Origin: an archaeon
GTDB lineage: Archaea; Nanobdellota; Nanobdellia; Pacearchaeales; GW2011-AR1
Assembly: GCA_037140195.1 (NCBI GenBank)
Contig: JBAXEZ010000002.1
Location: 1 to 43,875, forward strand
Reading direction: 5' to 3'
Length of the DNA stretch: 43,875 nt
Each line of letters begins with the position of its first letter. The first letter of the stretch is position 1. Below, in pieces: positions 5,427 through 40,353 of the stretch. The notes beneath the pieces are model-generated. The model saw nothing but the letters and a program-made list of their open reading frames with translations. It searched no databases and was not told the DNA's origin. The position numbers were made by a program, and so were the translations under genes.

Positions 5427-5477
5427 TTTTATTCTAGAAGAGGGATTTTTTGTCGTTGTTACTTTAAAATAAAAATA

Positions 5478-5485
5478 TTTAAATA
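5478..5485 (+). promoter_or_regulatory. TATA-box-like element (TTTAAATA) ~26 nt upstream of the ATG at 5507
   Basis: Sequence tatTTTAAATAgtcc. The same TTTAAATAGTC core recurs at 14568. Confidence 0.35.
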
Positions 5486-5506
5486 GTCCTGTTTTCTAAT
5501 TACTAC

Positions 5507-16344: not shown

Positions 16345-17373
16345 TTAAGCATTTACAAGTTTTTCAAAATTCTTCTTAAACTCTTCTAGATTTTCTGTAG
16401 GTACTCTTGCTCCGCAAGCTTCTGGATGTCCTCCGCCCGTTGCACCTAAGATATTCTCTATTGATTTTAATAGATATTCTTTGGCTTTTTTGCCTCTGAC
16501 TGAAATATTTCCTACGTCTTGTTTTTTGTACATAACTAGTATATGTTTATTGGGATTATCGAACTGAAGTTTGTTTGCAAGTTCTGAAGACATACTTGTT
16601 TCTCCGGCGTATTCAAGTAAAATTAAATTTTTTCCTATATTTTCAGTCTTTCTTAGCAAGATTGCCATATGTTTCATAAGTTGTTCATATTTTTGATGAA
16701 GATGTCTCGTTTCTGTGTTTTCGTCTAAAATATCTGTGGGGTTGTTTGACTTTATAAAAAGTCTAAACATATGAAGGACGTTGGTTGTAGTATCTTTTAA
16801 CCCAAAATTAATCATGGCAGATATTTTACCTATTTCTGTTTTATACATGCAATCAAATGGGCTCTTTGTTGTGGACAGAAATTCGGGATTTTCTTTTGCG
16901 TATTCTTTAGCAAAATCAGGCATATAGTTATCTCCGATACAACCCGCAACTGCAAGCCACTGTTCAGTTTTTCTTTCAAAGGTTTTGTAGGCTAAAAAAG
17001 TGGTTGGTTCGCTTGAAGGAAAGCTGTTAAAATAATCTATCTTTTCTTTTATTTCATCTTCGAGCTCTACTTCATGATGGTCTATCCACGTAATTGGAAT
17101 TCCTTTTTCAAATACTCCATCAATAAATTCTTTGCTTACTCTAGGTTTATCCAAAATAAAAACATGATCGGGGTTTAGTTCTTCGACTTTTCTAAGATAA
17201 CTTTTGTCTAAATCTGGGAAAGATTTGATTGCAACTCCTTTTCCTCTTCCAATTGATTTTTGAAAAATAATAAAACTACAGAATCCATCTACGTCGTTAT
17301 CAAAGAAAAATAAAGGATTTTGGGACTTCTCTAGAGACTCTTTTATCTGTTCTAGTTCTTTTTTAGATAACAT
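16345..17373 (-). CDS. DHH/DHHA1-family phosphoesterase (NrnA/CnpB-like size; candidate c-di-AMP or nanoRNA phosphodiesterase)
   Basis: DHH motifs FFFDNDVDGFCS, VFILDKP, ITWIDHH, CIGDNY. DHHA1 motif GGGHPEACGARV. The start lies 1 nt after the DisA stop. Confidence 0.85.
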   Translation of the reverse strand: MLSKKELEQIKESLEKSQNPLFFFDNDVDGFCSFIIFQKSIGRGKGVAIKSFPDLDKSYLRKVEELNPDHVFILDKPRVSKEFIDGVFEKGIPITWIDHHEVELEDEIKEKIDYFNSFPSSEPTTFLAYKTFERKTEQWLAVAGCIGDNYMPDFAKEYAKENPEFLSTTKSPFDCMYKTEIGKISAMINFGLKDTTTNVLHMFRLFIKSNNPTDILDENTETRHLHQKYEQLMKHMAILLRKTENIGKNLILLEYAGETSMSSELANKLQFDNPNKHILVMYKKQDVGNISVRGKKAKEYLLKSIENILGATGGGHPEACGARVPTENLEEFKKNFEKLVNA

Positions 17374-17374
17374 T

Positions 17375-18409
17375 TTAGATGATTATCCTTCCTTCAACTA
17401 TTTTTTCTCTTAGCAGTGCTATTTCTTCTTTTATATTGATATTATTATTTTTCAAAGTTTCTTCCATCTTCGTTGTTTCGTCATTCAATATATCATTCAA
17501 TGAAGCGACTTCCTTTACAATGGCAGATGCTTCTTTTTCAGAGATGTTTAATGCAGACATAAATCTGTATCCTCTAGGTGAAACAATTTCTTCTAGGTCT
17601 TTTTGGAAGATTAGTCTTGATATAGATTCTAGTTCAATTATTCCTTCGAAGCTTAAATTTTCAAGTAACAGTTTTGTTTTTTTCAATGACATTTTAGAAT
17701 AATCTCTTATTATTTCTTCTTCTTTTCTTTCAACGCCCTTTAGGAGTTCTTTAAATCTCAGATTCATTAAGTTTCCTTCTTTTCCTACTTCAATGAAATC
17801 TTTTTTAAGTGTTTCAGAATTTCTCAGGATAATTTCAGCTCTTTGAATTATTTTACAAACGTCTGAAACTGAAACCATATTCGTTATTTCAATTATCCCT
17901 ATTTTGTTTGTTAGTTCATCGAATATTTCTCTTTGTTTTTCTAGTAACTGGATTGTATTGCTAATTTCTCTAAAAACTTCTTCTGTCGGTCTAAGGTAAC
18001 ATCTTGAGTTTCCATAATAAAGAGTTGTTTTCTTTCTTCTTTCGGAGATTGTTATTACTAAGGTGTTCAGTTGCTTTGCTGTTTTTTCTGCAGCTTTGTG
18101 TCTTGTTCCTGTTTCGTTTGTTGGAATCGAAGCGTCAGGAGTAAACAATACATTTGCATATAGAATTCTTCTTAGATCTGAAGAAATAACAATTCCTCCA
18201 TCCATTTTACATAATTCAAAAAGTCTTTGGGGTGTGAAACGGCAGTTAACTCTAAATCCTCCTTCAATTACTTTTTCTATCTCTGGTGTCTCAAAAGCGA
18301 TTATTGCTCCTAAGTCTGATCTAAGTAAATCTGCAATTACTGTTCTAAGAGCTGTTCCTGGGGCGACCTTCTTTATCTGTTCAAGCATTAATTTATCTTT
18401 CTCGTCCAT
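17375..18409 (-). CDS. disA: DisA-type diadenylate cyclase (DNA integrity scanning protein-like)
   Basis: DAC-domain motifs APGTALRTVIADLLRSDLGAIIAF, MDGGIVISSDL.RILYANVLFTPD and ETGTRHKAAEKTAKQ. DisA-like helical linker. The C-terminus shows no clear G-h-G hairpins of the HhH domain. Confidence 0.88.
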   Translation of the reverse strand: MDEKDKLMLEQIKKVAPGTALRTVIADLLRSDLGAIIAFETPEIEKVIEGGFRVNCRFTPQRLFELCKMDGGIVISSDLRRILYANVLFTPDASIPTNETGTRHKAAEKTAKQLNTLVITISERRKKTTLYYGNSRCYLRPTEEVFREISNTIQLLEKQREIFDELTNKIGIIEITNMVSVSDVCKIIQRAEIILRNSETLKKDFIEVGKEGNLMNLRFKELLKGVERKEEEIIRDYSKMSLKKTKLLLENLSFEGIIELESISRLIFQKDLEEIVSPRGYRFMSALNISEKEASAIVKEVASLNDILNDETTKMEETLKNNNINIKEEIALLREKIVEGRIII

Positions 18410-18471: not shown

Positions 18472-19074
18472 TTATTTCATGACAATTCTGGCGTCGGCGA
18501 CCATATATTCTTTATCGTTTACCATCAATGGATTGATGTCTAATTCAGTTATATGTGAGTTATTTTTTATTAGTTTCTGAATTTTATTTATTGCTTCAAT
18601 TATATTTTTATTTTCTCTTTCAGATAGTTCTTTTGAAAATTTAGTATCTAGTATCATGGATTTTATGTCTTCTTCTTTAATCGGTATTACTCTAAAAGAA
18701 ACGTCTTTTTCCTTTTCTATGTTACTGCCACCCTTGCCGAACATTAAAACGTGTCCGAATTCTGGTGTGTGTTTTATTCCAAGAATAGCTTCTTTTCCGG
18801 AAATCATCTTTTGTATAATGACTTCTTCGAAGTTTTCTATTTTAGAAAGTTCGATGAAACATTTTTCTGCTTCTTCTATTGTTTTGATGTTGACTCTTAC
18901 TCCATTTACTCTGGCTTTGTGCATTATTTTTGTTGAGGAAACTTTCATGACCCATGGAAAAGAAATTTCTACTTTTTTTAGGTCTGTTTTCTTTTTTGAA
19001 AATGCTCTTTGTACTACTTTAAGTTCGTTTTTTTCTAAGAAATCTTCTGTCTCTTTTTCTGTTAATTGCTTCAT
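18472..19074 (-). CDS. acdB: ADP-forming acetyl-CoA synthetase, beta subunit (ATP-grasp domain)
   Basis: PWVMKVSS.KI.HK, GKEAILGIKHTPEFGHVLMFGKGG, ELDINPLMV. The size (200 aa) fits ACD beta. Confidence 0.8.
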   Translation of the reverse strand: MKQLTEKETEDFLEKNELKVVQRAFSKKKTDLKKVEISFPWVMKVSSTKIMHKARVNGVRVNIKTIEEAEKCFIELSKIENFEEVIIQKMISGKEAILGIKHTPEFGHVLMFGKGGSNIEKEKDVSFRVIPIKEEDIKSMILDTKFSKELSERENKNIIEAINKIQKLIKNNSHITELDINPLMVNDKEYMVADARIVMK

Positions 19075-19279: not shown

Positions 19280-20542
19280 ATGAAAAAGGTGGGTTTGAGC
19301 AATTTTTTTAATCCGCAAACTATTGCGATTATTGGAGCTTCTGATCATTTGGAGAAGGTTGGCGGGATTTTGCTGAAAAAGGCTTTGGCTAGCAAATTAA
19401 ATATTGTTCCGGTAAATGTTTCGCATGATGTTTTGCTAGGGATAAAGTGTCATAAGTCTGTTTTGGATTATTCGGGCAATATTGACTTGGCAGTTATTGC
19501 TATTCCGGAGGATTTTGTGTTTGGGGCTTTGGAAGAGTGTGGGAAAAAGAACATTCGAAACATTATAATTATCACTTCGGGATTTTCAGAAAATGGCGAT
19601 GGCGCGAAAGTTAAAAAGCTAGTTGATTTATCTAAGAAGTATAATTTTAAGTTTTTAGGAACTAACTGTTTTGGTATTTGTAATCCTTCTAGGAAGTTAG
19701 ACTTGACTTTTGCGGCTTCTATGCCACGAAATGGGAAAATTGCGTTTATTAGCCAGTCTGGAGCTTTGTGGAGCTATATTTCTGACTATGGTGAGATAGG
19801 GTTTTCTTCGTTTGTGAGTTTGGGAAATATGGAGAACTTGGACTTTAACGATTTTATACAGTATTATTCTAGAGATAAGAATACGGAAGCTATTGTTTTA
19901 TATGTTGAGAAGTTTAAAGATGGGCAAGAGTTCGTTAAAGTTTGCAAGAAGGCTATAAAGCGTGGCAAAAGAATTTATGCAATCAAGGGCGGAAGTTCCG
20001 AAGTTGGAGAGAAAGCGGCAATAAGTCACACTGCGAGTGTTGCTTCAGATTATGCGATTTACAAAGGAGTCTTTAAACAGGCAGGAGTTGAAATGTGCGA
20101 TAGTTTTATTGAGATGTTTGAGAAGGCGAGTAGAAGAAAAATAGAATACTCTAAAGAAACGGTTAAATTCAATCGCTCTTTTGTCATAACTAATGCTGGC
20201 GGGGCAGGGGTGTTGCTTTCGGACTATCTTTCTAAAAAAGGAGCTACTTTAATTGAGAAGCCAATGGATATTTTAGGAACTGCACTTGCGGAAGACTATG
20301 CTAAAGCTTTTAATGAAATAAAAGGTAAAGGTTTCGAAACCTTGTATGTTTTGGTAACTCCTCAGAGTATGACGGATAATGAAAATATCGCGAGAAAGGT
20401 AGTTGAGTTTAACAAAGAAATATCTAAGACGAAAAAACAAGTAGTAGCTTTATTTTTGGGTGGAAAATCTGTTGCGAAAGCGAAGGATTTGTTGAAGAAG
20501 AACGGAATTATTTGTTTAGATGCTATTGAAGGATTGAGTTAA
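19280..20542 (+). CDS. acdA: ADP-forming acetyl-CoA synthetase, alpha subunit (CoA-binding and succinyl-CoA-synthetase-like domains)
   Basis: FFNPQTIAIIGAS..VGG (CoA_binding_2), ISQSGAL, AAISHTASVASD (phosphohistidine loop). Confidence 0.85.
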   Translation: MKKVGLSNFFNPQTIAIIGASDHLEKVGGILLKKALASKLNIVPVNVSHDVLLGIKCHKSVLDYSGNIDLAVIAIPEDFVFGALEECGKKNIRNIIIITSGFSENGDGAKVKKLVDLSKKYNFKFLGTNCFGICNPSRKLDLTFAASMPRNGKIAFISQSGALWSYISDYGEIGFSSFVSLGNMENLDFNDFIQYYSRDKNTEAIVLYVEKFKDGQEFVKVCKKAIKRGKRIYAIKGGSSEVGEKAAISHTASVASDYAIYKGVFKQAGVEMCDSFIEMFEKASRRKIEYSKETVKFNRSFVITNAGGAGVLLSDYLSKKGATLIEKPMDILGTALAEDYAKAFNEIKGKGFETLYVLVTPQSMTDNENIARKVVEFNKEISKTKKQVVALFLGGKSVAKAKDLLKKNGIICLDAIEGLS

Positions 20543-20586: not shown

Positions 20587-22119
20587 ATGAGGTGCGAGAT
20601 TCTTATAGGTGGCAAAGCTGGGCAAGGTCCGAATTTTTTGAGTGAGCTTTTGGCGAATAGCTTGATTAAAGAAGGTTATTACGTTTTTTATTCTAGAGAT
20701 TATCAGTCCTTGATAAGGGGCGGACATAATTTTAATCAAGTTAGTTTTTCCGACAGTCCGGTTTTTAGTAATGTTTCTAAAATTAATGTTATGGTTTGCT
20801 TAGACGAGAATACCTCTAAACTTCACAAGAAAGAGCTAACTAAAGATGCGATTGTTGTTGATTTCGTTCAGGGAAAGGGAAATACTTATTTTGCAGGCGT
20901 TTTATTCAAGATACTTGAGATTCCATTTTCAGTTTTAGAAACTGAGCTTAAGAATTATGGAAAGTTTGAGGAGAATTTGAAAGATGCTAAAGATGGTTAT
21001 TCTCATAATGGTCGTTCTTTGAAAGTTAAAATTAAGAAAGCAAATCATAAATTAGATTTATTAAATGGAAGCGAAGCGACTGCTTTATCTGCGATTAAAT
21101 CTGGTTTGGATTTATATTATGCTTATCCTATGACTCCTGCAACTCCTTTGATGATGGAATTGGGAACTATGCAGTTGGAGGGGGGAAATCATCACAAGGT
21201 GATTGAAGTTGAAAATGAAATTGCCGTCGCTTTGGCTGGAATTGGTTCTTCTGTTGTAGGAAAGAGAGTTATGGTGGGAACTGCAGGTGGTGGATTTGAT
21301 TTGATGACTGAGAGCTTGAGTTTTGCTGCTATGACTGAAGTTCCCTTGGTGTTTTATTTAGCACAGAGGCCCGGACCAGGAACCGGAGTTGCAACTTATA
21401 CTTCTCAGGGTGATTTGAATTTAGCTTTATATTCAGGACATGGTGAATTTTTTAGATTGGTTTTAGCTCCTGGAGATAATGATGAATGTATTAAATTAAC
21501 AAATGATGCTTTCTATTTTTCTCATAAGTATAGAGTTCCTTCAATTGTTTTAACCGACAAACACCTGGGAGAAAGTAAATCTTTGTTTGATAAGGAAAAA
21601 TCTTTGAAATCAGTTAAAGAAATTAAAAGTTCTGTGAAAGTTGGGGAGAGATTTAATAGTTATGAACACGACAAGAAGTTAAATAATATTGCAACTGAAG
21701 ATGCAGAAGTTATCAAATCAAATTTTGAGGTTAGAATGAAAAAAGAAAAAGCGATTATACAAGAGACTGAACGATTTGAACAGATTAAAGTTTATGGAAA
21801 TAAAAATTCTAAAAATTTAATTTTATCTTGGGGTTCTACTAAAGGTGCGATACTCGATGCTATAAATGAAAATAAAATCGACGCAAAGTTTGTTCAGGTT
21901 TTATATATGAATCCGTTTCCAATAAAACAAATTAAGGATGTGATCAGTAAGGCTAAACGAGTTTTAGTTGTTGAAAACAATTCTGAAAGTCCATTAGCTA
22001 GATTAATTGCTGAGAAAACTGGGGTTTTAATTGAAGATAAAAATAAAATTTTAAGGTACGATGGAAGACCTTTCTTTAGTGATGGATTGGCGGAAGAAAT
22101 TAGGAGGAGATTGAGATGA
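20587..22119 (+). CDS. 2-oxoacid:ferredoxin oxidoreductase, fused gamma-alpha subunit
   Basis: The N-terminus ILIGGKAGQGPNFLSELLANSL..RGGHN is the POR gamma domain. LNGSEATALSAIKSGLDLYYAYPMTPATPLM is alpha domain I. TATA-like tctTTAAATAtg ~20 nt upstream. Confidence 0.9.
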   Translation: MRCEILIGGKAGQGPNFLSELLANSLIKEGYYVFYSRDYQSLIRGGHNFNQVSFSDSPVFSNVSKINVMVCLDENTSKLHKKELTKDAIVVDFVQGKGNTYFAGVLFKILEIPFSVLETELKNYGKFEENLKDAKDGYSHNGRSLKVKIKKANHKLDLLNGSEATALSAIKSGLDLYYAYPMTPATPLMMELGTMQLEGGNHHKVIEVENEIAVALAGIGSSVVGKRVMVGTAGGGFDLMTESLSFAAMTEVPLVFYLAQRPGPGTGVATYTSQGDLNLALYSGHGEFFRLVLAPGDNDECIKLTNDAFYFSHKYRVPSIVLTDKHLGESKSLFDKEKSLKSVKEIKSSVKVGERFNSYEHDKKLNNIATEDAEVIKSNFEVRMKKEKAIIQETERFEQIKVYGNKNSKNLILSWGSTKGAILDAINENKIDAKFVQVLYMNPFPIKQIKDVISKAKRVLVVENNSESPLARLIAEKTGVLIEDKNKILRYDGRPFFSDGLAEEIRRRLR

Positions 22120-22622
22120 AAATAACTTACAGATTTGGAAAAGTTGGAGACGAGAAGGGGCTTGCAGAATTAATTAAAGAAGGGATTGAAAGAAAAAATT
22201 GGATTTATAATGGCAGCAATGTTGCTCCTGATAAAAAGAAAATTTCTAAGTTTAGAGAAGATTTTAAACAAGTTTCTAATACTATTACTGTTTTGGCTTT
22301 CGATGGTAAAAAGGTAGTAGGGTCTATTAATGGTAGATTTAAAAAAAGTGGGAGGTTGAGACATAGGGTTGAAATGGGTTGGGGAGTTCATCCAGATTAC
22401 CAGGGGCAGGGAATAGCAACTAATCTAGTTAGGATTATATTGGGTGAAGTGAAGAATAGAGGATTTAAACGAGTTGAAGCAGAATGTGCTATAGAAAATA
22501 AAGCTTCTTGGAGGTTAGCTAAGAAATTTGGTCTTAAAATTGAAGGTAGGCGAAAGGGCGGTTTATTGATTGATGACGGAAGATTTATTGATACTTATTT
22601 ACTTGGGAAGGTGTTGAAATAA
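22116..22622 (+). CDS. GNAT-family N-acetyltransferase
   Basis: HPDYQGQGIATNLV (Q/R-x-x-G-x-G/A motif), RVEAECAIENKASWRLAKKFGLKIEG. ATGA overlap with the upstream stop. Confidence 0.85.
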   Translation: MKITYRFGKVGDEKGLAELIKEGIERKNWIYNGSNVAPDKKKISKFREDFKQVSNTITVLAFDGKKVVGSINGRFKKSGRLRHRVEMGWGVHPDYQGQGIATNLVRIILGEVKNRGFKRVEAECAIENKASWRLAKKFGLKIEGRRKGGLLIDDGRFIDTYLLGKVLK

Positions 22623-23014
22623 TGGGAACAATAATAAAAAAAGTTGAGATAAATGAAGGCGTGAAGAAAATGATAGAAGACAATGCGCTTGGTTTTGCAA
22701 CTGTGGATAAAAAAGGAAATCCTCACAATATCGCTATTGGCTTTGTAAAAGTTGTTTCTAAAAATCAACTGATTGTTTCAGATAATTATCTTTATGAGAG
22801 TGTTAAAAATATAAAAAGCAATCCAAATGTTTCGCTTGTTGTTTGGGCTAAAGATTGGAAAAAGAATTGTATTGGTTATGAACTCTGCGGGAAGGCAAAG
22901 TATTTTTCTTCTGGAGAGTTGTTTGAATTAATTAAGAAAATTCCTGAGAATAAAGGTGCTCCTTGCAAGGGTGCAATATGGATAACTATAAACAAAATGA
23001 AGGTGTTGGATTAA
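22622..23014 (+). CDS. Pyridoxamine 5'-phosphate oxidase-like FMN-binding split-barrel protein
   Basis: NALGFATVDKKGNPHNIAIGFVKVV..NQLIVSDNYLYESVKNIKSNPNVSLVVW. TAATG overlap with the upstream stop. Confidence 0.7.
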   Translation: MGTIIKKVEINEGVKKMIEDNALGFATVDKKGNPHNIAIGFVKVVSKNQLIVSDNYLYESVKNIKSNPNVSLVVWAKDWKKNCIGYELCGKAKYFSSGELFELIKKIPENKGAPCKGAIWITINKMKVLD

Positions 23015-23015
23015 A

Positions 23016-23579
23016 ATGAAAATTGAGACAAAGAGATTAATATTAAGATTGCCTAATAAAGACGATGTCCCGGATTTAGTGATTGCTCTCAATAATAAAA
23101 ATGTTTCTAGATATATGGCTAGTATGCCCTATCCTTACACTAAGAAAATTGCTCAAGATTTTGTTTCAAGAAATATTATAGATTCCAAAAGCAAAGAACG
23201 AAATAAATATGAATTTAATTTAGAATTAAAATCCGAGAAGAAGATTGTCGGAGGAGTCGGATTAAGTAATGTTAAGTATGGGTTAGCTTCAATCGGTTAC
23301 TGGTTAAGGGAGGATTTATGGGGGCAAGGTTTAATGAGTGAGGCGGTCTTGGCAATGATTGATTTTGGATTTTCTAAATTGAAGTTAAGAAGAATAGAAC
23401 TTACTTGCAGTGAGGTAAATTCTGGCTCAAGGGCAATTGCTGAGAAATTTGGATTTAAATTGGAAGGGGTTCTTAGAAAGGCTCACGGAACTTTACATAA
23501 TGGCAATTTTGCGAATAAATGTGTTTATGGTTTGTTAAAGGAAGATTGGCCAGAAGTAAAAAAGAGGATGAAAAAATGA
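23016..23579 (+). CDS. GNAT-family N-acetyltransferase, RimJ/RimL-like
   Basis: IETKRLILRLPNKDDVPDLV..NVSRYM, GYWLREDLWGQGLMSEA, RIELTCSEVNSGSRAIAEKFGFKLEGVLRKA. Confidence 0.85.
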   Translation: MKIETKRLILRLPNKDDVPDLVIALNNKNVSRYMASMPYPYTKKIAQDFVSRNIIDSKSKERNKYEFNLELKSEKKIVGGVGLSNVKYGLASIGYWLREDLWGQGLMSEAVLAMIDFGFSKLKLRRIELTCSEVNSGSRAIAEKFGFKLEGVLRKAHGTLHNGNFANKCVYGLLKEDWPEVKKRMKK

Positions 23580-24004
23580 CTAACAAAATTATTATCCGAA
23601 AAGCAACTATTAAAGACATTAAGGCAGTTAGAGAAATAGCTAATGTTCCGGGACTTAAAGCTGCTGGAGATGATGAAGCTCCTCCTGCAAGATGGTATTC
23701 TCCTCTAATTAAAAAAATGTTTTATATTGCTGAAGTAGATGGAGAAGTTGTTGGCTTTTTAACTGGTGAGAATTTAAGGAATATTGGGCTTTTGTGGGAG
23801 ATAGGAGTATTTCCGAAATTTCGTTCGCAAGGCATTGGAAGTATATTACTTAAGAAATTTATAGATGAATGTAACAAAAAGAAATTAGTGGTAATGATTG
23901 CGTATGGAAGTAATAATGAGAATACTTTAGGATTTTTTAGAAAACATAAATTTATAGAAGGGGGAACATATAAAGAGCTAAGGTTAAACCTTAAAAATTT
24001 TTAA
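23576..24004 (+). CDS. GNAT-family N-acetyltransferase, RimI-like
   Basis: The ORF track gives 23519. The ATG at 23576 (MTNKIIIRKATIKDI) overlaps the upstream stop as ATGA, matching the coupling seen throughout this block. Motif FPKFRSQGIGSILL. Confidence 0.8.
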   Translation: MTNKIIIRKATIKDIKAVREIANVPGLKAAGDDEAPPARWYSPLIKKMFYIAEVDGEVVGFLTGENLRNIGLLWEIGVFPKFRSQGIGSILLKKFIDECNKKKLVVMIAYGSNNENTLGFFRKHKFIEGGTYKELRLNLKNF

Positions 24005-24005: not shown

Positions 24006-24800
24006 ATGGTCAGTAAATCAATTCGTACAAATGCAGCACCTACGTGGTGTCCGGGATGTTTCAATTTTATGATACTTGCAGGTGTGCAGAAGTTTTTAGA
24101 AAAACAAATTGCGAGTGGAAAAAAGAAAGATGATTTTGCGATGGTTTCTGGAATTGGATGTCATGCGAAGATTTTTGATTATTTAGATTTACAAGGAGTT
24201 AATTCTTTACATGGGAGAGTTTTACCCGTTGCTTTGGGAATGAAAATCGCAAATCCTAAATTGAATCTTCTTGCGTTTTCTGGTGATGGTGATGCTTATG
24301 CTGAAGGAATGGAGCATTTAATTCATATGGCTAGATATAATTCTAATATCAAATATATGGTTCACAATAATCAGGTTTTTGCGTTGACGATTGCGGAACC
24401 TTCTCCGGTTTCTGAAATTGGATATAAAGATAAGACAAATCCTAATGGAGTTAAATTGCAACCTATGAATCCTATTAAATTAATGCTTGGGGCTGGTGCG
24501 AGTTTTGTCGCGAGAGTTTTCGCGGATGTTAGTCAGGTTCAACAGGTTTTAGAAGAAGCTCAGAAACACAAAGGTTTTTGTTTTATTGAAGTTATACAAC
24601 CTTGCGTAATTTTTCATAATGATGCGGGATATAAAGAGAAAACTTATAGCTTACAAGATGCGAAGCATGATAAAACTAATTTTGAAGCAGCGATGAAGAA
24701 AGCTGAAGAGTTCGATTACAATTCTATTAAATCAGATACAAAGATTCCGCTTGGTATTTTTTATCAAAAGGAAAAGAAGGTTTTTGAGGAACTTTTATAG
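24006..24800 (+). CDS. 2-oxoacid:ferredoxin oxidoreductase, beta (TPP-binding) subunit
   Basis: WCPGCFNFMI, SGIGCH, FSGDGDAYAEG (TPP GDGD motif), IEVIQPCV. Confidence 0.9.
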   Translation: MVSKSIRTNAAPTWCPGCFNFMILAGVQKFLEKQIASGKKKDDFAMVSGIGCHAKIFDYLDLQGVNSLHGRVLPVALGMKIANPKLNLLAFSGDGDAYAEGMEHLIHMARYNSNIKYMVHNNQVFALTIAEPSPVSEIGYKDKTNPNGVKLQPMNPIKLMLGAGASFVARVFADVSQVQQVLEEAQKHKGFCFIEVIQPCVIFHNDAGYKEKTYSLQDAKHDKTNFEAAMKKAEEFDYNSIKSDTKIPLGIFYQKEKKVFEELL

Positions 24801-27000: not shown

Positions 27001-27183
27001 ATGGCGATAATCAAAGTTGATAAAAAATTGTGTATCGGATGCGGAGCTTGTGCTTCTATGTGTTCAGATATTTTCGAGATGAAAGGCGGAAAGTCTGTGG
27101 TCAAGAAAGCTAAAGTTGAAGATGCTACTTGTGCTAAAGATGCTGAGTCTGCTTGTCCTGTTGGTGCGATAAGTGTTAAATAG
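27001..27183 (+). CDS. fdx: Small single-cluster ferredoxin (Pyrococcus/Thermotoga-type, 60 aa)
   Basis: CIGCGAC....C plus C-terminal ACPVGAISV. Classic CxxCxxC...CP ligand pattern. Confidence 0.85.
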   Translation: MAIIKVDKKLCIGCGACASMCSDIFEMKGGKSVVKKAKVEDATCAKDAESACPVGAISVK

Positions 27184-27184: not shown

Positions 27185-27964
27185 TTATCTCTTAAACAAA
27201 GTCCTTTTAGCGGTTCCGTTAATTATTTCTTCAAGGTTCGAGTTAACGTTTGAGATAATTAGCTCTTTATCTTGACTTAGTATTGTTTTTGCTGCATCGA
27301 GTTTTGTTTTGAAACCTCCATTTCCATGTTTGGATTTACCATTACAATAACTATACACTTCGTTATTAATTTCATAAACTCGTTCTACAAGTTCTCCAGA
27401 ACCATTTTTAAGGCCATCGTAATCATGGCCTAGAATTATTAATCTATCCCCTTTACAACTTAGCATAATTTCTGCTGCTAGTGTGTCGTTATCTTTTTTA
27501 ATTTCTTCGAAATCTATAGAATCATTATAGTTTATTAGAGTTAATCTTCCTTTTTTTAAATTTTCTATAATCAAATTTCTTATTTCTTCTGTTTGTTTGA
27601 GTTCCTTTTCGGTTACAAGAATCTGGCAGATATTTTTTTTGAACAGTTTTCCATAAAAATCCATTAATATCTTTTGACCGAGACTAGCGTAACCTTGAAG
27701 TTCTGTCGAACTTAATTGATCTTTATTTCTTGTTTCTTCTTCAGAATACCTGCCCATGGCTATGGCTCCGGATACAATAAGAACGTTTTGGTTTGTGTCG
27801 TTTTCTATTTCATTTGCTTTTTTCTTAAGAACTTCGTAATTTAATTCTCCTTTCGAATTGAATAGGCAAGCAGAGCCTATTTTAATAAACTGAATAAAAT
27901 TGTTAGAGTCCTGATTACGCTGAAGGAATATAATCTGCGCCTTTTGTGAACGCCGATGCTCCAT
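27185..27964 (-). CDS. proB: Glutamate 5-kinase-like amino-acid kinase (no PUA domain)
   Basis: Matches ProB blocks by eye: IKIGS, VLIVSGAIAMGR, ASLGQ..L...Y..LF, INYNDSI, DNDTLAAEI, GNGGFKTKLDAAK. No proA is seen nearby. Confidence 0.75.
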   Translation of the reverse strand: MEHRRSQKAQIIFLQRNQDSNNFIQFIKIGSACLFNSKGELNYEVLKKKANEIENDTNQNVLIVSGAIAMGRYSEEETRNKDQLSSTELQGYASLGQKILMDFYGKLFKKNICQILVTEKELKQTEEIRNLIIENLKKGRLTLINYNDSIDFEEIKKDNDTLAAEIMLSCKGDRLIILGHDYDGLKNGSGELVERVYEINNEVYSYCNGKSKHGNGGFKTKLDAAKTILSQDKELIISNVNSNLEEIINGTAKRTLFKR

Positions 27965-28026: not shown

Positions 28027-28881
28027 TTATGGTTTTCTAAAATTTATTCCTTCGGCTTTTTTTATCCAGCCTTTGTTGTGCTCGTGTATTGAGGCTCTTT
28101 TTGAGAATTTCATATAATTCTTTATTCTTTTTGTTTTTTCGGTAAGCTTTTTATCTTTCCCTATAAATGGTCCGCCAAGACAACCGCTAACACAAAAGTT
28201 TATGTCTAAAAATCTTATTTTCTTATTAGGCTTTTTTAAGTAGGCATCTAAGAACTTTTTTACTTTGTCTACTCCATCGATTATTTTTACTTCGTTTTTC
28301 TTTAGAACTCCCTTGAGATGTGCGGTTTTGCTTAGTCCTCCAGCAACTGGATAAATTTTAGTGTAGTCATTGTATAAACAGTCGAATTTTTCTATTGTTC
28401 CTTTATTAGTTTTTTTAACTGAGATTTTATTTTTTCCAAATAATTGTTTTAGTTGCTGGTAATCTATAACATAATCTATATATTTGGAGCTTTCAGCTTC
28501 TTGTTTTTTGAAGCTACAAGGAGAGATAAATATTCTTGTGTATTCGGGAAAATTTTTTTTGCAAATCTTTGCTGTTGCAATCATCGGGCTGTCTACTTTT
28601 ACTAGATTATCTTTAAATTGAGGATAGTTCGTTTCAATAAAAGTAGTAATTCCTGGACAAGCTGTAGAAATGTACATTTTTTTATTTTTTAAAATTTCAT
28701 GATATTCTCTATTAACCATTTTGGCTCCGAAAGTTAATTCTGTAACTTTTTTGAAACCTAATTCTTTTAGTGCGACTATGATTTCAGGATAATCGAATTC
28801 AGCAATGAAACTCGGTGCAAGCAAAGCTATGCATTCTTTTTCTCTTATTATTTTTTCAATTTTAAGTATGTCGTTTTTCAT
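28027..28881 (-). CDS. [FeFe]-hydrogenase H-domain-only protein (HydA-like, 284 aa)
   Basis: Collinear with the H-cluster domain: IALLAPSF, LGFKKVTELTFGAKM, ISTACPG (P1; Cys75 kept, preceding Cys is Ala74), ISPCSFKKQE (P2; Cys122, Lys125, Glu128), PVAGG, FLDINFCVSGCLGGP (P3; Cys230, Cys234). No N-terminal ferredoxin-like domain. Confidence 0.8.
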   Translation of the reverse strand: MKNDILKIEKIIREKECIALLAPSFIAEFDYPEIIVALKELGFKKVTELTFGAKMVNREYHEILKNKKMYISTACPGITTFIETNYPQFKDNLVKVDSPMIATAKICKKNFPEYTRIFISPCSFKKQEAESSKYIDYVIDYQQLKQLFGKNKISVKKTNKGTIEKFDCLYNDYTKIYPVAGGLSKTAHLKGVLKKNEVKIIDGVDKVKKFLDAYLKKPNKKIRFLDINFCVSGCLGGPFIGKDKKLTEKTKRIKNYMKFSKRASIHEHNKGWIKKAEGINFRKP

Positions 28882-30044
28882 TTTCTCTTTTTTTGATTCT
28901 CAATTTTTTTCTCTGCTTTTCTTACTACATAAAGTGAAGTCATCGATATTATTCCTAGAACTGCAAGATATATGAACATTGCGGAATTGTTTAGGTCCCA
29001 GATAAATCCTGCTATTAGTCCTCCAAATATTGCGGAAAGACCTCTAATGAAGTAGAAATATCCCATTGCTGTGCCCTTTTCTTTTCCAGCCAAGTCTGCG
29101 ACAACTGCTTTTTGTACTGGTTCTGTCATTGCAGATACAAATCCATAAAGTATGAACAATATTGTGATTGCAATTAAAGAATTAAAATATGCGAATCCTA
29201 AGCAAACAAGTGCGAATAGAAGATATCCGCAGATAAGAGTTAGCCTTTTTCCAAATTTGTCCGCTACTTTTCCAATAGGGTTAGCTGAAAGAGCATAAAC
29301 TAAATTAAATATTGCGTAAAGTACTAGGGGGATGATTTCATTTCCGGAAATATTTTTTGCCGTTACTAAAATAAACATATACAAACCAAAATTTGCGAAT
29401 GCGAATAATGCTATTAGATATATTGCTCTTTTTAATTTCCTGTCGAGTTTTGAAACTCCTTGTAATAATGTGGCTTTTAGAGGATAGGACTTTACGTCTT
29501 TTACAAAGAAGAGAGGTATTAGTGAGAACATTGTTATGAATGCTGCTGCGAAAACTATTGTTCTGAAGTTCCAATGCAATAACCAAAATATTAAAATAAC
29601 TATAATGGTCCCTAGTGCACCGCCAAGGCTATCGAACGTTTGATGTAGTCCGAAGGTGTTTGCGTGTTTACCTTTCATTCTTGCTATAATTGCGTCTCGT
29701 GGTGGATCTCTTATTTTGCCCACCCTTTCTAATGAAACAGCCGTAATAATTTGTGTTGTCGTTTGTGCAAATCCTATAAAAAATTTTAAAATTATAGAAA
29801 GCATATAGCCTATAAATACGATTTCTTTTCTTTTTCCGATCTTGTCAGAGAACCAACCTCCAAATAGTTTTAGAAGACTTGAAAGTCCTTCTCTTAGTCC
29901 ACTTATTAATCCCATTGTGACTCCGCCGCCACCGAGTGAGCTGATAAAAAAAGGTAAAATCGGAGAAATCATCTCACTACCCATATCGTTAAACATACTA
30001 GAAGAACCTAAAAGATAAATATTTTTTTTGTTCTGTTTCCGCAT
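28878..30044 (-). CDS. MFS transporter
   Basis: About 12 hydrophobic segments. MFS loop motif GGWFSDKIGKRK. Its stop overlaps the HydA-like start by 4 nt. Confidence 0.85.
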   Translation of the reverse strand: MRKQNKKNIYLLGSSSMFNDMGSEMISPILPFFISSLGGGGVTMGLISGLREGLSSLLKLFGGWFSDKIGKRKEIVFIGYMLSIILKFFIGFAQTTTQIITAVSLERVGKIRDPPRDAIIARMKGKHANTFGLHQTFDSLGGALGTIIVILIFWLLHWNFRTIVFAAAFITMFSLIPLFFVKDVKSYPLKATLLQGVSKLDRKLKRAIYLIALFAFANFGLYMFILVTAKNISGNEIIPLVLYAIFNLVYALSANPIGKVADKFGKRLTLICGYLLFALVCLGFAYFNSLIAITILFILYGFVSAMTEPVQKAVVADLAGKEKGTAMGYFYFIRGLSAIFGGLIAGFIWDLNNSAMFIYLAVLGIISMTSLYVVRKAEKKIENQKKRK

Positions 30045-33533: not shown

Positions 33534-34382
33534 TTAATCTATTTTAATTTTTCCTTCTTGCCAGTCTGTTAAAATTGCCCTCGCTGTTCGGTCTTCATCT
33601 ACGACTCCGCCTTTTTTTAAAAGATTTCTTTTCTTTCCAACTTCTTCTATTAGTAAATCTCCGTCGCCATTTGCTACAACTCCATAATGTTCTTCTAGTA
33701 TTGGGCCGTATTCTTCTACTAATTTTTGAATTACCATATCTGGTCTTTTGACTTTGTTTGCATCTCTGGCACTTATTTTTGCGTGTTGGCTAATCATTTC
33801 TTGCTTTTGGTGAGAGTAATCTTTTGCTGGAATAACTCCCGGAGTGTCTAAAATTAATATATCGGAAGTTAGTCTAATTTTTTGCATTCCCTTTGTGAAA
33901 CCAGCTTCGGCTCCAACCTTTGCTGAACCTGTTCCAGTTAAGAAATTAATCAAAGAAGATTTTCCGGTGTTGGGATAACCAATAATTCCTACTTGGAATC
34001 TTTTCATTTCTTCGTGTGGCATAATAACTCTTTTAGCTTCGATTTTCAATTTGTCTCTTAGTTCTTTTGAGCCTTTTCTTGTTGTGCAGGAAACAAAAAC
34101 AAAAGGATACAAACCTAGTGCTTTCATTTCAAGTTTTTTCTTTGGAACGTCAACTAAATCACATTTGTTTAAAACATAGATTAATTTCTTGCCTTTTTTC
34201 TTTACTTGCTCTTCAATATCTGGATTTCGTGTGTCTTCTATAAATCTCGCATCAAGAACTTCCAGGATAATGTCTGAGATTTTTAAGATTTCGGTGACTA
34301 CGTCTGGGTATTTCTTTCTCTGTTTGTCTATATTCTCCAAATGTCCTGTTCTTTTTGAAGAAAATGAGTATCGTACTCTCAT
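33534..34382 (-). CDS. Circularly permuted ribosome-biogenesis GTPase (YlqF/RbgA-like)
   Basis: G4 (LNKCDL) precedes G1 (GYPNTGKSSLIN) and G3 (DTPGV). This is the permuted order typical of the YlqF/YawG family. Confidence 0.85.
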   Translation of the reverse strand: MRVRYSFSSKRTGHLENIDKQRKKYPDVVTEILKISDIILEVLDARFIEDTRNPDIEEQVKKKGKKLIYVLNKCDLVDVPKKKLEMKALGLYPFVFVSCTTRKGSKELRDKLKIEAKRVIMPHEEMKRFQVGIIGYPNTGKSSLINFLTGTGSAKVGAEAGFTKGMQKIRLTSDILILDTPGVIPAKDYSHQKQEMISQHAKISARDANKVKRPDMVIQKLVEEYGPILEEHYGVVANGDGDLLIEEVGKKRNLLKKGGVVDEDRTARAILTDWQEGKIKID

Positions 34383-35032: not shown

Positions 35033-35080
35033 TACATAAATCATTTTAAACCCTAAATTTTTCTAGAATACTGATTGAGG

Positions 35081-36802
35081 ATGATAAGTGAATATTGTAA
35101 ATTTATTGAAGAGAATGGTTTGTCTCCGTTTAATAAACTCAAGACTGCTGTGAATGGTGGTTCGGATTCTATTTACAAGACTAAAGATGGGAAGCTGATT
35201 CATAATAAGTTTTTGACTAAGATTTCTTCAAATTTTGTTTTTTCGGATAGTTCGAATCTTTGGCAGTGTCATTTTTTCACTGAAAATGCTAGTGAGATAA
35301 AAAGAAGACAGGAATTTTTTAGAAATTTGGTTTCCGTTGAAAATGATTTTCTTAAGAATTTAAAAAAGCCACGACAAGTTTGGTCTCCAAAGTATGAAGT
35401 TATTGCAGTTACTGAAAATGAAGATACTTTTGTTAAGCTAAACGAACTTGGATGTACAACAAAGTTTTTGTCTTCGGAATATGATTTGAATGATTTAGAA
35501 AGGTATGATATTGTTCAAGTAATTGATTGCGATGCGTTCCAAAGAGCACTCGAAAGTTTGCCTCAGTCTGTTTTTATTGATAACTTGGATGACGTTTATC
35601 TTGAGAGATACTTAGAGATTTTGTCTTCGTGGAGAGAAAATTTAGAAATTTTGAAACTAAATTCTTCTGATGGAGAAATATTAACTATTGTTCAAGAGTT
35701 GGCTCCGTTATTTCCTTTTTTGGGAGAAGTAAATTCTAAGATAATTAAGCGAGAGGAAGTTGCGGTTATTGTTGAAGAAATAAATAATAAGATTGAAGAG
35801 AAAATAAAAGATGTGACTATTTCTGGCGGTTCTTTGATGAAGATTCTTGGTGAGAAAAAACTCCCCCTAGAATTCCAAAAAGTTATCACTGATGCAATTA
35901 ATGAAAGCGGAGTTCCTGAGTATATTTTTAATTTTACTATCCCCGTTTCTGTAGATGAAAAAGAGCTTGATGATTTGATTAAAAGGCAAAGTGCGAATGA
36001 ATTTACTGATTTAGCAGAAGAAATAAAATCTAAGGCTAAGATTTTGAAGTCTATTCCTGAAAAGTTAAATAGGGTTTCTAGTTTGCTGTTGATTATGGAT
36101 TTTCTTGGAGGGATTTCTAAATATCTTGAGACGGTCAATTCAATTCCTATTGAAAGTAAGGAGTTGTTTATTTCGAATTCTAAAAATTATTTTTTAGATA
36201 ATCCTCAGCCTATTAGTTTTAATCTTTCAGGAGAGTATAGATGTTCCATTTTGACTGGGGCGAATAGCGGTGGAAAGACAACTTTACTTGAACATATTAT
36301 CCAGTTGATTTCTGCTTTCCAGATTGGTTTGCCGGTAAATGGCGAGGTGAATATGCCTATTTTTGAGGAAGTTTATTATTTTGCTAAGAATAAGGGTGCG
36401 GCAAATAAGGGTGCGTTCGAGAATCTTTTAACTCAGATGTCTGAGATTAAACCTGGAAATAGAACTTTAATTTTGGCTGATGAAATTGAAGCAGTAACTG
36501 AACCGGGAGTTGCTGGAAAAATAATTGCTTCTACTGCAGAATATTTCCTGAATAAAAATTGTTTCTTAATTATTGCAACTCACTTAGGTCACGAAATAAA
36601 AGATGTTCTTCCGTTGCATGCTAGAATAGACGGAATTGAAGCTAAGGGGCTTGACGCAGAGTTTAATTTAATCGTTGACCATAATCCGGTAATTGGAAGA
36701 CTAGCAAATTCTACGCCAGAATTAATCGTTGAGAAGATGGCTAATATTCATCATACAGAATATTTTATACATTTGAATGAGAAACTGAAACGGGGAAAGT
36801 AA
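35081..36802 (+). CDS. MutS-family ATPase (MutS2-like, domain V only; no Smr domain)
   Basis: Walker A ILTGANSGGKTTLLEHI, Walker B LILADEIEAVTEP, IIATHLGHE. ATG 35081 is preferred over TTG 35075. Confidence 0.85.
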   Translation: MISEYCKFIEENGLSPFNKLKTAVNGGSDSIYKTKDGKLIHNKFLTKISSNFVFSDSSNLWQCHFFTENASEIKRRQEFFRNLVSVENDFLKNLKKPRQVWSPKYEVIAVTENEDTFVKLNELGCTTKFLSSEYDLNDLERYDIVQVIDCDAFQRALESLPQSVFIDNLDDVYLERYLEILSSWRENLEILKLNSSDGEILTIVQELAPLFPFLGEVNSKIIKREEVAVIVEEINNKIEEKIKDVTISGGSLMKILGEKKLPLEFQKVITDAINESGVPEYIFNFTIPVSVDEKELDDLIKRQSANEFTDLAEEIKSKAKILKSIPEKLNRVSSLLLIMDFLGGISKYLETVNSIPIESKELFISNSKNYFLDNPQPISFNLSGEYRCSILTGANSGGKTTLLEHIIQLISAFQIGLPVNGEVNMPIFEEVYYFAKNKGAANKGAFENLLTQMSEIKPGNRTLILADEIEAVTEPGVAGKIIASTAEYFLNKNCFLIIATHLGHEIKDVLPLHARIDGIEAKGLDAEFNLIVDHNPVIGRLANSTPELIVEKMANIHHTEYFIHLNEKLKRGK

Positions 36803-36803: not shown

Positions 36804-36841
36804 GTCTACATTTTAATTTATGTCTACAAAAATGTCTACAA
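36804..36841 (+). repeat. GTCTACA-box 1 (three GTCTACA motifs in 38 nt)
   Basis: gtctacattttaatttatgtctacaaaaatgtctacaa. 32 of 38 nt identical to 37795-37832. It overlaps the Fic stop codon. Confidence 0.7.
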
Positions 36842-37780
36842 TTTAGATTTAATCTCTTTTTTGGTGGATTTGTACTCTTTTAATAAAAATTCGATTGTAG
36901 GGCGTAAATTTTTGTTCTTTTCATATTCTTGTAGACAGGCATAATATTCGTGTCTATTTGCTAACTTTATGTCTATTGGTGGAAGGTTGTGCTTTATTAA
37001 TATATTATTTAAAATTATTCTTCCCACTCTTCCGTTTCCGTCTGCAAATGGGTGTATATTTTCAAATTGATTGTGGACAACGGAAGCTAAAATTATTCCC
37101 GGATATTTTGCTTTATTGTTATTGTACCAGTCTACTAAATTTTGTAATAGTCCTAAAACTCTTGATTGTGGTGCTCCTTCATGCACTACTTTTCCAGAAG
37201 AAGACATCACAACTACTTCTTGTCCTGGTTTTCTAAATTCACCTGCAAAATTTTTAGAATTTTTAAAAACTTCTTTATGTATTTCTTTTAATAGCTGGAC
37301 TGATAAATGCTCTTTTGTTTCTCTAATAAACTTTATTGCTTCTTTGACTCCATAAGCTTCGGCTATGTCTTCTTTTGATTTTTCTGGCCATTTATTTTCC
37401 GTTAATATTCCAGAAACTTCTTTCGAGGTAAGTTCGCTTCCTTCTATTGCATTTGTATTATATGTGAAATTTGTGGAGAAGATATCCCATTCTTTTTCAG
37501 ATAAATGTGTAACCTTAAAGTCTGCTTGCAATTCTAATTTTTTAATAAAAGAAAGTTCTTCTTTAGAGAGTTCTTTATCTAATGGGTCCTGAATAATTTT
37601 ATATTTTCCAATTTCTTCTAAAATTAGGGTTTCTAGTTTTTTCTTTCGTTCTTCTAGCATTTCTTTAGATAGGTCAGTTCCAATTAATTTTCTTATTTTG
37701 TGAACTTTCTCTCCTTCTCTAAAAGAATGAGCTAAAAAGTATTTTTTCTTTCCTTTGATGATTTTTTCTTCGATGTACAT
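36836..37780 (-). CDS. fic: Fic/Fido-domain protein (AMPylase family) with an N-terminal inhibitory-helix motif
   Basis: Active-site motif HPFADGNGRVGR (HxFx[D/E]GNGRxxR). TNAIEG matches the [S/T]xxxE[G/N] auto-inhibition motif N-terminal to the core (class II layout). Confidence 0.9.
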   Translation of the reverse strand: MYIEEKIIKGKKKYFLAHSFREGEKVHKIRKLIGTDLSKEMLEERKKKLETLILEEIGKYKIIQDPLDKELSKEELSFIKKLELQADFKVTHLSEKEWDIFSTNFTYNTNAIEGSELTSKEVSGILTENKWPEKSKEDIAEAYGVKEAIKFIRETKEHLSVQLLKEIHKEVFKNSKNFAGEFRKPGQEVVVMSSSGKVVHEGAPQSRVLGLLQNLVDWYNNNKAKYPGIILASVVHNQFENIHPFADGNGRVGRIILNNILIKHNLPPIDIKLANRHEYYACLQEYEKNKNLRPTIEFLLKEYKSTKKEIKSKL

Positions 37781-38845: not shown

Positions 38846-39595
38846 ATGGGAAGCAAACTAATTCAGTATAAGGGCGATTTTGTAACTTGTTCCAAAAAGA
38901 TTGCATATGCTGGGCAAAGAATTGCAACGACAAGAGACGGAATGCTGGATGCATTTAGGCGAAAAGCAACCTTTCAAGATAAGATGACTCATGCTTCTAG
39001 TTGTTGGTATTCAGAAGGAACTGCTAGAATTGATGGCGTAAATTATTGGTGTTCGGCAGAATATGCTCCGACAACTCGTTACACTTACAAAGCTCGAGAA
39101 GAAAATGAAATGGGCAATTTCTTAGCATTAACTCCTGATTTAAATGTCGGAAATAAACCGGCATTAGAAGTTATTCCTCGAATTGCAGAGGAAGATAAAA
39201 ACAAACTTCCAGAAAGAAGGAGGGTTCTGATTCCAGAAATACAGAGAAATTTTTCAGTAACTTCTACTGCTTTCGTGTATATTGACATTGCTAGATTTCT
39301 GGCAAGAGATTTAACTCTCGCACAAGACTATGGTCGTCTTTTATCGGAGTATTGCGGAATGAAATCTATTATGTTTTATCAACTTTCTGGACGGAAGGAT
39401 GTTGCAGCAGGAATTTCACTTGCTAGGTTGGCAGCTGCAGATTCTTTTCTTTTTGATGGTCATAATAGTGATTTTTTTGATAATGAAAATTTTATGTTCG
39501 GAAAGCAAAAAGATATTGTGCCAGAAGTTATAACGCCGACAGCAGAACAATCTGCAATTATTGAAATGGTGTTAAAAAATAGGCCTAAAAAATAA
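38846..39595 (+). CDS. Unknown-family protein, paralogue 1 of 3 (249 aa)
   Basis: Shares blocks with the next two genes: FV.C, IAT.R.GM, EGTA.I.GV.YWC..EYAPTT, ALE.IP.IAEEDK.K.PE.RR.LIP, DIARFLARD..LA.DY, FYQ, AAG, IIE..L.NRPKK. Confidence 0.75.
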   Translation: MGSKLIQYKGDFVTCSKKIAYAGQRIATTRDGMLDAFRRKATFQDKMTHASSCWYSEGTARIDGVNYWCSAEYAPTTRYTYKAREENEMGNFLALTPDLNVGNKPALEVIPRIAEEDKNKLPERRRVLIPEIQRNFSVTSTAFVYIDIARFLARDLTLAQDYGRLLSEYCGMKSIMFYQLSGRKDVAAGISLARLAAADSFLFDGHNSDFFDNENFMFGKQKDIVPEVITPTAEQSAIIEMVLKNRPKK

Positions 39596-39596
39596 A

Positions 39597-40352
39597 ATGG
39601 AAAATAAATTAACTAAGTATAATGGAAATTTTGTAAAGTGTTCAAAAAAGATTGCAAAGGCGGGTGAGATAATAGCTACTGCTCGTGAGGGGATGATTGA
39701 GAGGATTGCGAGACGAAAAACTTCTCGGTATGAATCTAAGGGTTGTTGGCATTCGGAGGGCACTGCAAATATTGATGGAGTGACTTATTGGTGTTTAGCA
39801 GAATATGCTCCTACAACTCAAAATATTAAAAGAACATACGCTGCCAACTTTGAAGGGTTATATCTTCCTTTAATAAGTAATGTAAAAATAAGGGTAGAAT
39901 CTGCATTGGAACTTATTCCGAGAATAGCTGCGGAAGATAAAAATAAACTTCCTGAGCAAAGAAGAGTTTTAATTCCCGAGATGCAAGACACTTTTATAAT
40001 AGATTCAGCAGAGTTTGGTAATATAGACATTGCTAGATTTTTAGCTAGAGATGCAACACTTGCGAAAGATTATAGTCATCTTTTAGATATTTTTTATGGT
40101 ACAAAGTTTACTTCTTTTTATCAACTTGCAGTAGATGAAAATTCTGCAGCAGGAGTATTTTTGGGAGTAGTTGGAGATGTATCTCATTTTACAGTTTATG
40201 GTACTGATGGAGATTTTTCAGATAGTAATGGGCGTATGTTTGGAACGACTGCCAAATCGCAGGTTATTGGTTTAGAAAAAAAAGCTATAAAACCTACACC
40301 TAAACAATTAGCAATTATAGAGCAATTGCTTATGAATCGTCCTAAAAAATAA
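39597..40352 (+). CDS. Unknown-family protein, paralogue 2 of 3 (251 aa)
   Basis: Same conserved blocks. Starts 1 nt after the upstream stop. Confidence 0.75.
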   Translation: MENKLTKYNGNFVKCSKKIAKAGEIIATAREGMIERIARRKTSRYESKGCWHSEGTANIDGVTYWCLAEYAPTTQNIKRTYAANFEGLYLPLISNVKIRVESALELIPRIAAEDKNKLPEQRRVLIPEMQDTFIIDSAEFGNIDIARFLARDATLAKDYSHLLDIFYGTKFTSFYQLAVDENSAAGVFLGVVGDVSHFTVYGTDGDFSDSNGRMFGTTAKSQVIGLEKKAIKPTPKQLAIIEQLLMNRPKK

Positions 40353-40353
40353 A

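Follow-up and report, generated by a model that had tools for sequence, protein, structure and literature searches.

The smallest hydrogenases known are the group E [FeFe] hydrogenases, ultraminimal enzymes of DPANN archaea (Nanoarchaeota, Iainarchaeota and Micrarchaeota), which were defined by Greening et al. (Cell 2024; PMC11216029). As streamlined H2 catalysts they attract interest, and they raise the questions of how a bare H-cluster domain (H-domain) receives its protons and how it is matured. Group E enzymes have a mean length of 286 amino acids (aa) and are monomers made up of the H-domain alone, with condensed loops; every ligating Cys is kept and the proton-transfer residues differ. 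Their clade is the sister of the bacterial sensory group C, and genes for a 2-oxoacid:ferredoxin oxidoreductase (OFOR) are frequently found beside theirs (PMC11216029). The subject of this paper is hydA, a gene on a 43,875-nucleotide stretch of archaeal DNA (contig JBAXEZ010000002.1 of assembly GCA_037140195.1; the whole stretch is called the window). Its product, HydA, is a bare H-domain and a new member of this already-described family, the picture of which is unchanged by it. The window thus holds one more group E enzyme, with an unusually complete gene context that offers a ready-made set of putatively cognate ferredoxin and OFOR. Most probably, HydA is an ultraminimal [FeFe] hydrogenase by which a DPANN archaeon (Nanoarchaeota) releases H2 fermentatively via ferredoxin.

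Fm, the group E enzyme of ‘Ca. Forterrea multitransposorum’ (Iainarchaeota), has been produced in E. coli, and reconstitution brought it to 4.2 Fe per protein. It holds one [4Fe-4S] cluster together with the azadithiolate-bridged subsite ([2Fe]adt), shows the states Hox, HoxH and Hred′ in Fourier-transform infrared spectra, and makes H2 after being loaded with [2Fe]adt (PMC11216029). On an electrode it works in both directions but favours proton reduction, in which it differs from the sensory enzyme TmHydS (PMC11216029). A group A1 or group E enzyme is often the sole hydrogenase of a DPANN genome, and the DPANN hosts are predicted to be obligate fermenters, generally without carbon-fixation pathways and respiratory reductases (PMC11216029). 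In the sensory enzymes of groups C and D, the position of the proton-relay residue C299 is mostly occupied by Ala (A131 in TmHydS, A137 in TamHydS; PMC10407848); sensory enzymes depart from group A at all three of C299, M353 and M497, the second of these being replaced by Gly, Thr or, commonly, Ser (PMC10055695).

The gene in question was taken from the list of open reading frames (ORFs) of the window:

28027..28881, minus strand: hydA, encoding a 284-aa [FeFe] hydrogenase that consists of the H-cluster domain only (group E, ultraminimal), with an ATG start

The single Pfam match of HydA is Fe_hyd_lg_C (PF02906), which covers residues 16-238 and positions 2-245 of the 245 in the profile (E=4.1e-40); the Pfam scan found no second domain, so there is no accessory Fe-S domain. 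Among NCBIfam models, the top match is to the H-domain portion of the group B model TIGR04105 (140 bits, cutoff 450), and the group A models reach 66 bits (cutoff 406). A phmmer search of PDB sequences returned [FeFe] hydrogenases only, including TmHydA, CpI, CbA5H and CrHydA1. The AlphaFold2 model, built from an alignment of 24 sequences, has a mean pLDDT of 85.3 and a pTM of 0.86, and its best 50 Foldseek matches in the PDB are [FeFe] hydrogenases without exception (query-normalised TM-scores 0.69-0.78). The observation is real and far beyond chance. HydA shares with the group A enzymes CpI and CrHydA1 the fold, the H-cluster ligands and the K358/E361 pair, but it falls short of CrHydA1 (457 aa) by about 170 residues, its loops are condensed, and it has no F-clusters.

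The residues that hold the H-cluster lie in three motifs, which were read directly from the DNA:

28651..28668, minus strand: motif 1, STACPG (residues 72-77, with S72, A74, C75 and G77)
28498..28524, minus strand: motif 2, SPCSFKKQE (residues 120-128, with S120, C122, K125 and E128)
28171..28197, minus strand: motif 3, FCVSGCLGG (residues 229-237, with F229, C230, S232 and C234)

Residue numbers were tied to those of CpI by HMMER alignments, and conservation was counted in 187 distinct close relatives (268-300 aa, median 281). In these alignments C75, C122, C230 and C234 correspond to C300, C355, C499 and C503 of CpI, of which C300 is a ligand of the cubane [4Fe-4S]H and C503 links the cubane to the [2Fe] subsite. 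K125 corresponds to K358, which contacts cyanide (CN-) in CpI, and E128 to E361. All 187 relatives have C75, G77, S98, P99, P121, C122, K125, E128, C230 and C234. There is also a fifth conserved Cys, C107 (28561-28563), which is present in 177 of the 187 in the core clade and is aligned with Ser332 of CpI.

The residues that carry protons in group A have fared differently. A74 sits at the proton-relay position, C299 of CpI; at this position the 187 relatives have Val (84), Ala (53), Thr (30) or Pro (20), and never Cys. The equivalent of S319 is V94 (Ile, Val or Ala across the relatives) and that of E282 is E62, a position that is mostly Lys across the family, whereas the E279 position is acidic in 162 of the 187. 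Thus, the group A proton-transfer residues at the C299, S319 and E282 positions are not kept in the family of HydA, and because the relay position is never Cys and the other two positions have changed across the 187 relatives, the loss of the group A proton pathway is a family trait rather than a peculiarity of this gene. The two Met positions have changed as well: M353 corresponds to S120 (Ser in 173 relatives, Ala in 11, Thr in three), and M497 to N228 (Asn in 80, Thr in 54, Leu in 50), given that M497-A498-C499 of CpI pairs with N228-F229-C230. None of C299, M353, M497, S319 and E282 is therefore conserved as in group A, and HydA has STACP, SPC and NFC where group A has TSCCP, MPC and MxC. 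With Ala at the C299 position and a small residue (Ser) at the M353 position, HydA resembles TmHydS and TamHydS of groups C and D. E252 of TamHydS, which belongs to the alternative proton path of group D and is Val in group A, appears from the alignments to correspond to Leu183 of HydA, which is near-invariant (186 of the 187 relatives).

A first-pass annotation of this DNA, made from the letters alone, had described a 284-aa H-domain ORF with the four ligating cysteines and the Lys/Glu pair of motif 2, with no accessory Fe-S domain and with the relay Cys replaced by Ala, and in all of this it was right. It had also given Ser and Phe as the substitutes of the two Met residues: Ser120 is correct for M353, but the equivalent of M497 is Asn228, and Phe229 pairs with A498. 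Its further statements, that sensory (group C) enzymes carry similar substitutions and that minimal archaeal [FeFe] hydrogenases had recently been reported, are borne out by the literature (PMC10407848 for C299, PMC10055695 for M353 and M497; PMC11216029 for group E). Of the checks which it proposed, phylogenetic placement puts HydA in group E, and the structure model has the fold of [FeFe] hydrogenases. Placement, artificial maturation and a structure model had already been provided for the group E family in 2024 (PMC11216029), so hydA is less new than that annotation held.

The relatives of HydA show where it belongs. A word-indexed protein search at E<=1e-5 gave 1015 clusters, the best 120 of which are all 269-300 aa in length with PF02906 as their only domain, and come from metagenome-assembled genomes of Pacearchaeota or Nanoarchaeota where these are named. 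When representatives at 50% identity were searched exhaustively with HMMER, 1981 matches were obtained. Roughly the top 25 do not exceed about 316 aa (some are fragments; those of full length have about 260-316 aa), and below them stand proteins of 550-1030 aa in which the H-domain begins near residue 60. By Pfam, these longer relatives combine Fer4, the H-domain and ‘FeS’ (PF04060) with PAS, HisKA-HATPase, sigma54-activator or GGDEF domains, as seen in P0146, P0147, P0149, P0153, P0155 and P0160, i.e., they are of the sensory type. The domain layout of group B is found in two later matches (465 and 484 aa). By HMMER, the enzymes of groups C and D are the nearest multidomain relatives of HydA, which differs from them in having neither N-terminal [4Fe-4S] clusters nor a C-terminal FeS/PAS or other output domain; the group E enzyme studied on the electrode differs further in its bias to production rather than oxidation of H2 (PMC11216029).

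When GTDB was scanned with a single genome for each species, relatives were encoded in 246 stretches, and at least 246 GTDB species genomes have one; the family far exceeds the 30 sequences with which it was first described. Counts of loci given below use the best 80 of the 246, which are nearly all from Woesearchaeota, Pacearchaeota or Nanoarchaeota (top identity 86%). Three close relatives with 52-58% identity (L017, L056 and L073) are in records titled ‘Paceibacterota bacterium’ or ‘bacterium’; these may be archaeal contigs that were mislabelled or misbinned, and not group E genes of bacteria. The window itself bears archaeal-type genes, e.g. those for deoxyhypusine synthase and a beta-CASP nuclease. 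One of the 80 loci, L062, is on contig CABMGN010000008.1 of assembly CABMGN01, the source of the Nanoarchaeota group E reference of the founding paper (CABMGN01 sp902385635). Its protein is 51% identical to HydA over residues 14-283, and has the motifs ISSVCPG, SPCNFKKIE and FCEGACIGG.

In a rough neighbour-joining (NJ) tree (Kimura distances, 226 H-domain columns, 100 bootstraps) of HydA, eight GTDB relatives, 22 minimal, 28 sensory-like and two group B-like proteins and two group A fragments, and without Fm, HydA groups with the L062 protein and other Nanoarchaeota sequences in 97 of 100 bootstraps. All minimal proteins together with one 352-aa relative form a clade in 72 of 100, nested among sensory-like proteins, and groups A and B, which keep the relay Cys, are separate in 95 of 100. 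The identity of the HydA H-domain falls in step, from 54-89% within the core clade and 36-54% with other minimal representatives to 29-37% with sensory-like proteins and 30-33% with groups A and B. The 352-aa protein, P0145, has an N-terminal 2x[4Fe-4S] ferredoxin domain followed by a minimal H-domain and lies inside the minimal-protein clade; it could be an intermediate between the sensory-type and the ultraminimal architectures. HydA is therefore like Fm and the CABMGN01 enzyme in every defining feature of group E that is open to computation: an H-domain alone, of 284 aa as against a mean of 286, with four ligating cysteines kept and the group A proton-transfer residues lost, in a DPANN host, with OFOR genes near and no maturase near, and in the same clade as the CABMGN01 enzyme.

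The neighbouring genes are those which a ferredoxin-dependent hydrogenase could use. About 46 ORFs of the window were annotated with Pfam and NCBIfam, and the relevant ones are as follows:

18472..19074, minus strand: beta subunit (ATP-grasp) of an ADP-forming acetyl-CoA synthetase; Pfam ATP-grasp_5, E=2.9e-44, and NCBIfam matches of the acetate--CoA ligase type
19280..20542, plus strand: alpha subunit of an ADP-forming acetyl-CoA synthetase (acetate--CoA ligase); Pfam CoA_binding_2 and Succ_CoA_lig; TIGR02717, E=1.8e-107, below cutoff
20587..22119, plus strand: OFOR alpha subunit, 510 aa; Pfam POR_N, POR and PFOR_II; TIGR03710, E=2.3e-120
24006..24800, plus strand: OFOR beta subunit, TPP-binding; Pfam TPP_enzyme_C and PFO_beta_C; NCBIfam NF008820, E=2.3e-85
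27001..27183, plus strand: single-[4Fe-4S] ferredoxin, 60 aa, candidate electron donor to HydA; Pfam Fer4_13, E=4.4e-14

These genes and hydA are all within 11 kb. The OFOR alpha subunit has its POR and POR_N domains within one protein, and the two synthetase genes are divergent. When neighbours were counted within a radius of 6 kb in 81 sequences (the 80 GTDB loci and the window), an OFOR beta gene was found near hydA in 42, in 19 of them directly upstream on the same strand, and an OFOR alpha gene in 36, mostly upstream on the same strand; in another 19 loci the gene directly upstream on the same strand encodes an RNase Z-like protein. Ferredoxin homologues lie within 6 kb of hydA in 10 of the 80 loci. 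Housekeeping genes make up the further frequent neighbours (RNase Z-like MBL, LSm, S8e, EamA and TatD). Taken together, the OFOR, the ferredoxin and the ADP-forming acetyl-CoA synthetase of the window fit a ferredoxin-driven fermentative release of H2.

Two further gene arrangements in this region were noted. Between hydA and the ferredoxin gene lies a gene for an amino-acid-kinase or ProB-like protein (259 aa, 27185-27964, minus strand; TIGR01027, 105 bits, cutoff 186), which looks like an insertion, because the ferredoxin gene is directly convergent with hydA in L001, L004 and L046. The OFOR alpha and beta genes are split by four same-strand genes (22116-24004, plus strand), three for GNAT acetyltransferases (168, 187 and 161 aa) and one for a PNPOx-like flavoprotein (130 aa); an alpha-beta pair is not usually interrupted in this way.

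Directly upstream of hydA is the gene that had attracted attention in the first-pass annotation as an unusual partner:

28878..30044, minus strand: MFS transporter, 388 aa; Pfam MFS_1, E=4.8e-41

Its NCBIfam matches are weak, below cutoff and of the efflux type. The DNA shows a 4-nucleotide ATGA overlap of the hydA start codon (ATG, 28881-28879) with the stop codon of the MFS gene (TGA, 28880-28878), as had been claimed, and the two genes are probably co-transcribed. An identical HydA is encoded on contig CAZYDM010000006.1 (GCA_964645175.1) and in three further assemblies, and the order MFS-hydA is kept in all four. Across the family, however, an MFS gene stands beside hydA in only five of the 80 loci (L001-L004 and L006), all of them close relatives, and the MFS transporter was therefore rejected as a family-wide functional partner, a place that belongs to OFOR. 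The coupling, a trait by which HydA and its close relatives differ from other group E enzymes, seems to have arisen recently and locally, and no functional link between the two genes is evident.

With the sequence, fold, motifs, clade and gene context of HydA as observed, its homology to Fm and its neighbours suggest an enzyme that binds an H-cluster and evolves H2 with electrons from a ferredoxin. C75, C122 and C230 would hold the [4Fe-4S]H cubane and C234 would bridge the cubane to the [2Fe] subsite, with K125 and the backbone region of S98-P99 as the conserved contacts to the diatomic ligands. As there are no accessory clusters, a small soluble ferredoxin, probably the 60-aa product of 27001-27183, would reduce the solvent-exposed H-cluster directly. 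The ferredoxin in turn would be reduced by the OFOR encoded 3-7 kb from hydA, and the acyl-CoA formed by the OFOR would yield ATP via the neighbouring ADP-forming acetyl-CoA synthetase. This is the mechanism that has been put forward for group E, and it is the best supported one for HydA. Such a chain from OFOR via ferredoxin to H2, with an ATP-yielding synthetase at its side, implies that the likely role of HydA is the disposal of fermentative reductant as H2. Since the group A pathway is absent (C299 is replaced by Ala74, S319 by Val94, and the E282 equivalent is not conserved), the azadithiolate amine would have to receive its protons in some other way, probably through water or solvent access, as the group C/D relatives do.

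Several points weigh against this reading. Most genomes of group E hosts are without maturases, activity has been reported for Fm only, and the Nanoarchaeota enzyme (Na) was poorly soluble (PMC11216029). The window is without HydE, HydF and HydG, which leaves the assembly of the [2Fe] subsite in vivo putative. The OFOR genes of the window are on the strand opposite to hydA, 3 kb off and outside any hydA operon. In the CxGGC loop between two of the ligands, HydA alone has Ser (S232, 28186-28188) at a position that is Gly in 180 of the 187 relatives and Asn in the closest ones; this departure from a near-universal Gly sets HydA apart from the rest of group E. Finally, the tree is a rough NJ tree in which the group A references are fragments.

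None of the approximately 46 ORFs scanned with Pfam and NCBIfam in the 43.9-kb window encodes HydE, HydF, HydG or any radical-SAM protein, in agreement with the first-pass annotation and with the unexplained lack of maturases in group E hosts (PMC11216029). The only GTPase in the window (33534-34382) was considered as a HydF and rejected; it is YlqF-like (146.6 bits), and reaches 50.8 bits with the HydF model, for which the cutoff is 325. Because there is no maturase in the window, two minority readings are kept, namely that HydA is not a hydrogenase in vivo, or that it is matured by another route. The questions of maturation in vivo and of proton delivery belong to group E as a whole, and not to the hydA locus.

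According to the first of these, which is unlikely, HydA would carry a [4Fe-4S] cluster only and would have a redox or Fe-S scaffold role analogous to that of eukaryotic Nar1/NARF. Nar1 and NARF (IOP1) belong to the same Pfam domain family as HydA and, like it, are not known to have a relay Cys; they are eukaryotic and much longer, have an N-terminal Cys cluster and are not known to bind a [2Fe] subsite. HydA is archaeal, its sequence is without a Nar1-type N-terminal Cys cluster, and the proteins most similar to it are sensory and group B hydrogenases of prokaryotes; by its own sequence and its matches it differs from Nar1 and NARF. In favour of a scaffold are the lack of maturases in the window and the complete reliance of the published activity on synthetic [2Fe]adt. 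However, the residues that contact the [2Fe] subsite (C234, K125, E128, S98-P99 and P76-G77) are invariant in the 187 relatives, as would scarcely be expected of a protein that never binds this subsite. Furthermore, Fm has a well-defined [2Fe]adt pocket and turns over H2, and eukaryotes and Synechocystis are cited as making active enzyme without maturases (PMC11216029).

Somewhat less probable still is a working H-cluster obtained without HydE, HydF and HydG by an undescribed maturation route or by the uptake of a precursor, in which case the MFS transporter coupled to hydA in this sub-clade might import a cofactor precursor from the host.

It is very improbable that HydA, like its group C/D relatives, is an H2 sensor that signals to a separate partner protein without bulk turnover of H2. 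The closest multidomain relatives are indeed of the sensory type, with their PAS, HisKA, sigma54-activator or GGDEF domains, and the changes of C299 to Ala and of M353 to Ser are common to both. Yet HydA is without a signalling domain and has neither a C-terminal FeS/PAS module nor an N-terminal cluster, and no conserved regulator gene stands beside hydA, the conserved partner being OFOR. Moreover, Fm is biased to proton reduction, unlike TmHydS, and with a group A1 or E enzyme often being the sole hydrogenase of a DPANN genome, there would be nothing left to regulate (PMC11216029).

The reactions catalysed by OFORs are reversible in principle, and Fm works in both directions on an electrode (PMC11216029). 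A role mainly in H2 uptake, in which environmental or host H2 would reduce ferredoxin for a reductive OFOR reaction, is just as improbable as a sensor, since Fm is clearly biased to proton reduction, the OFOR of the window is paired with an ADP-forming acetyl-CoA synthetase that yields ATP, which points to the oxidative, fermentative direction, and the DPANN hosts, as predicted obligate fermenters, generally have neither pathways for carbon fixation nor respiratory reductases (PMC11216029).

Several further genes of the window were noted. Five large ORFs on the same strand (115-10185, plus strand; 579, 924, 255, 1089 and 470 aa) have only weak PKD and DUF5018 matches in Pfam, and may encode surface or secreted proteins. 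Three tandem paralogues (38846-41106, plus strand) of 249, 251 and 250 aa, with pairwise identities of 45-50%, have no Pfam match and all end in ...NRPKK. A gene for a Fic-domain protein of 314 aa (36836-37780, minus strand) is convergent with one for a 575-aa protein (35075-36802, plus strand) that has a weak match to MutS domain V. Finally, at 16345-18409 on the minus strand, a gene for a DisA-type diadenylate cyclase (DAC and DisA-linker domains, 344 aa) is directly upstream of one for a DHH/DHHA1 phosphoesterase (342 aa), which looks like a pair for making and breaking c-di-AMP in a DPANN archaeon.

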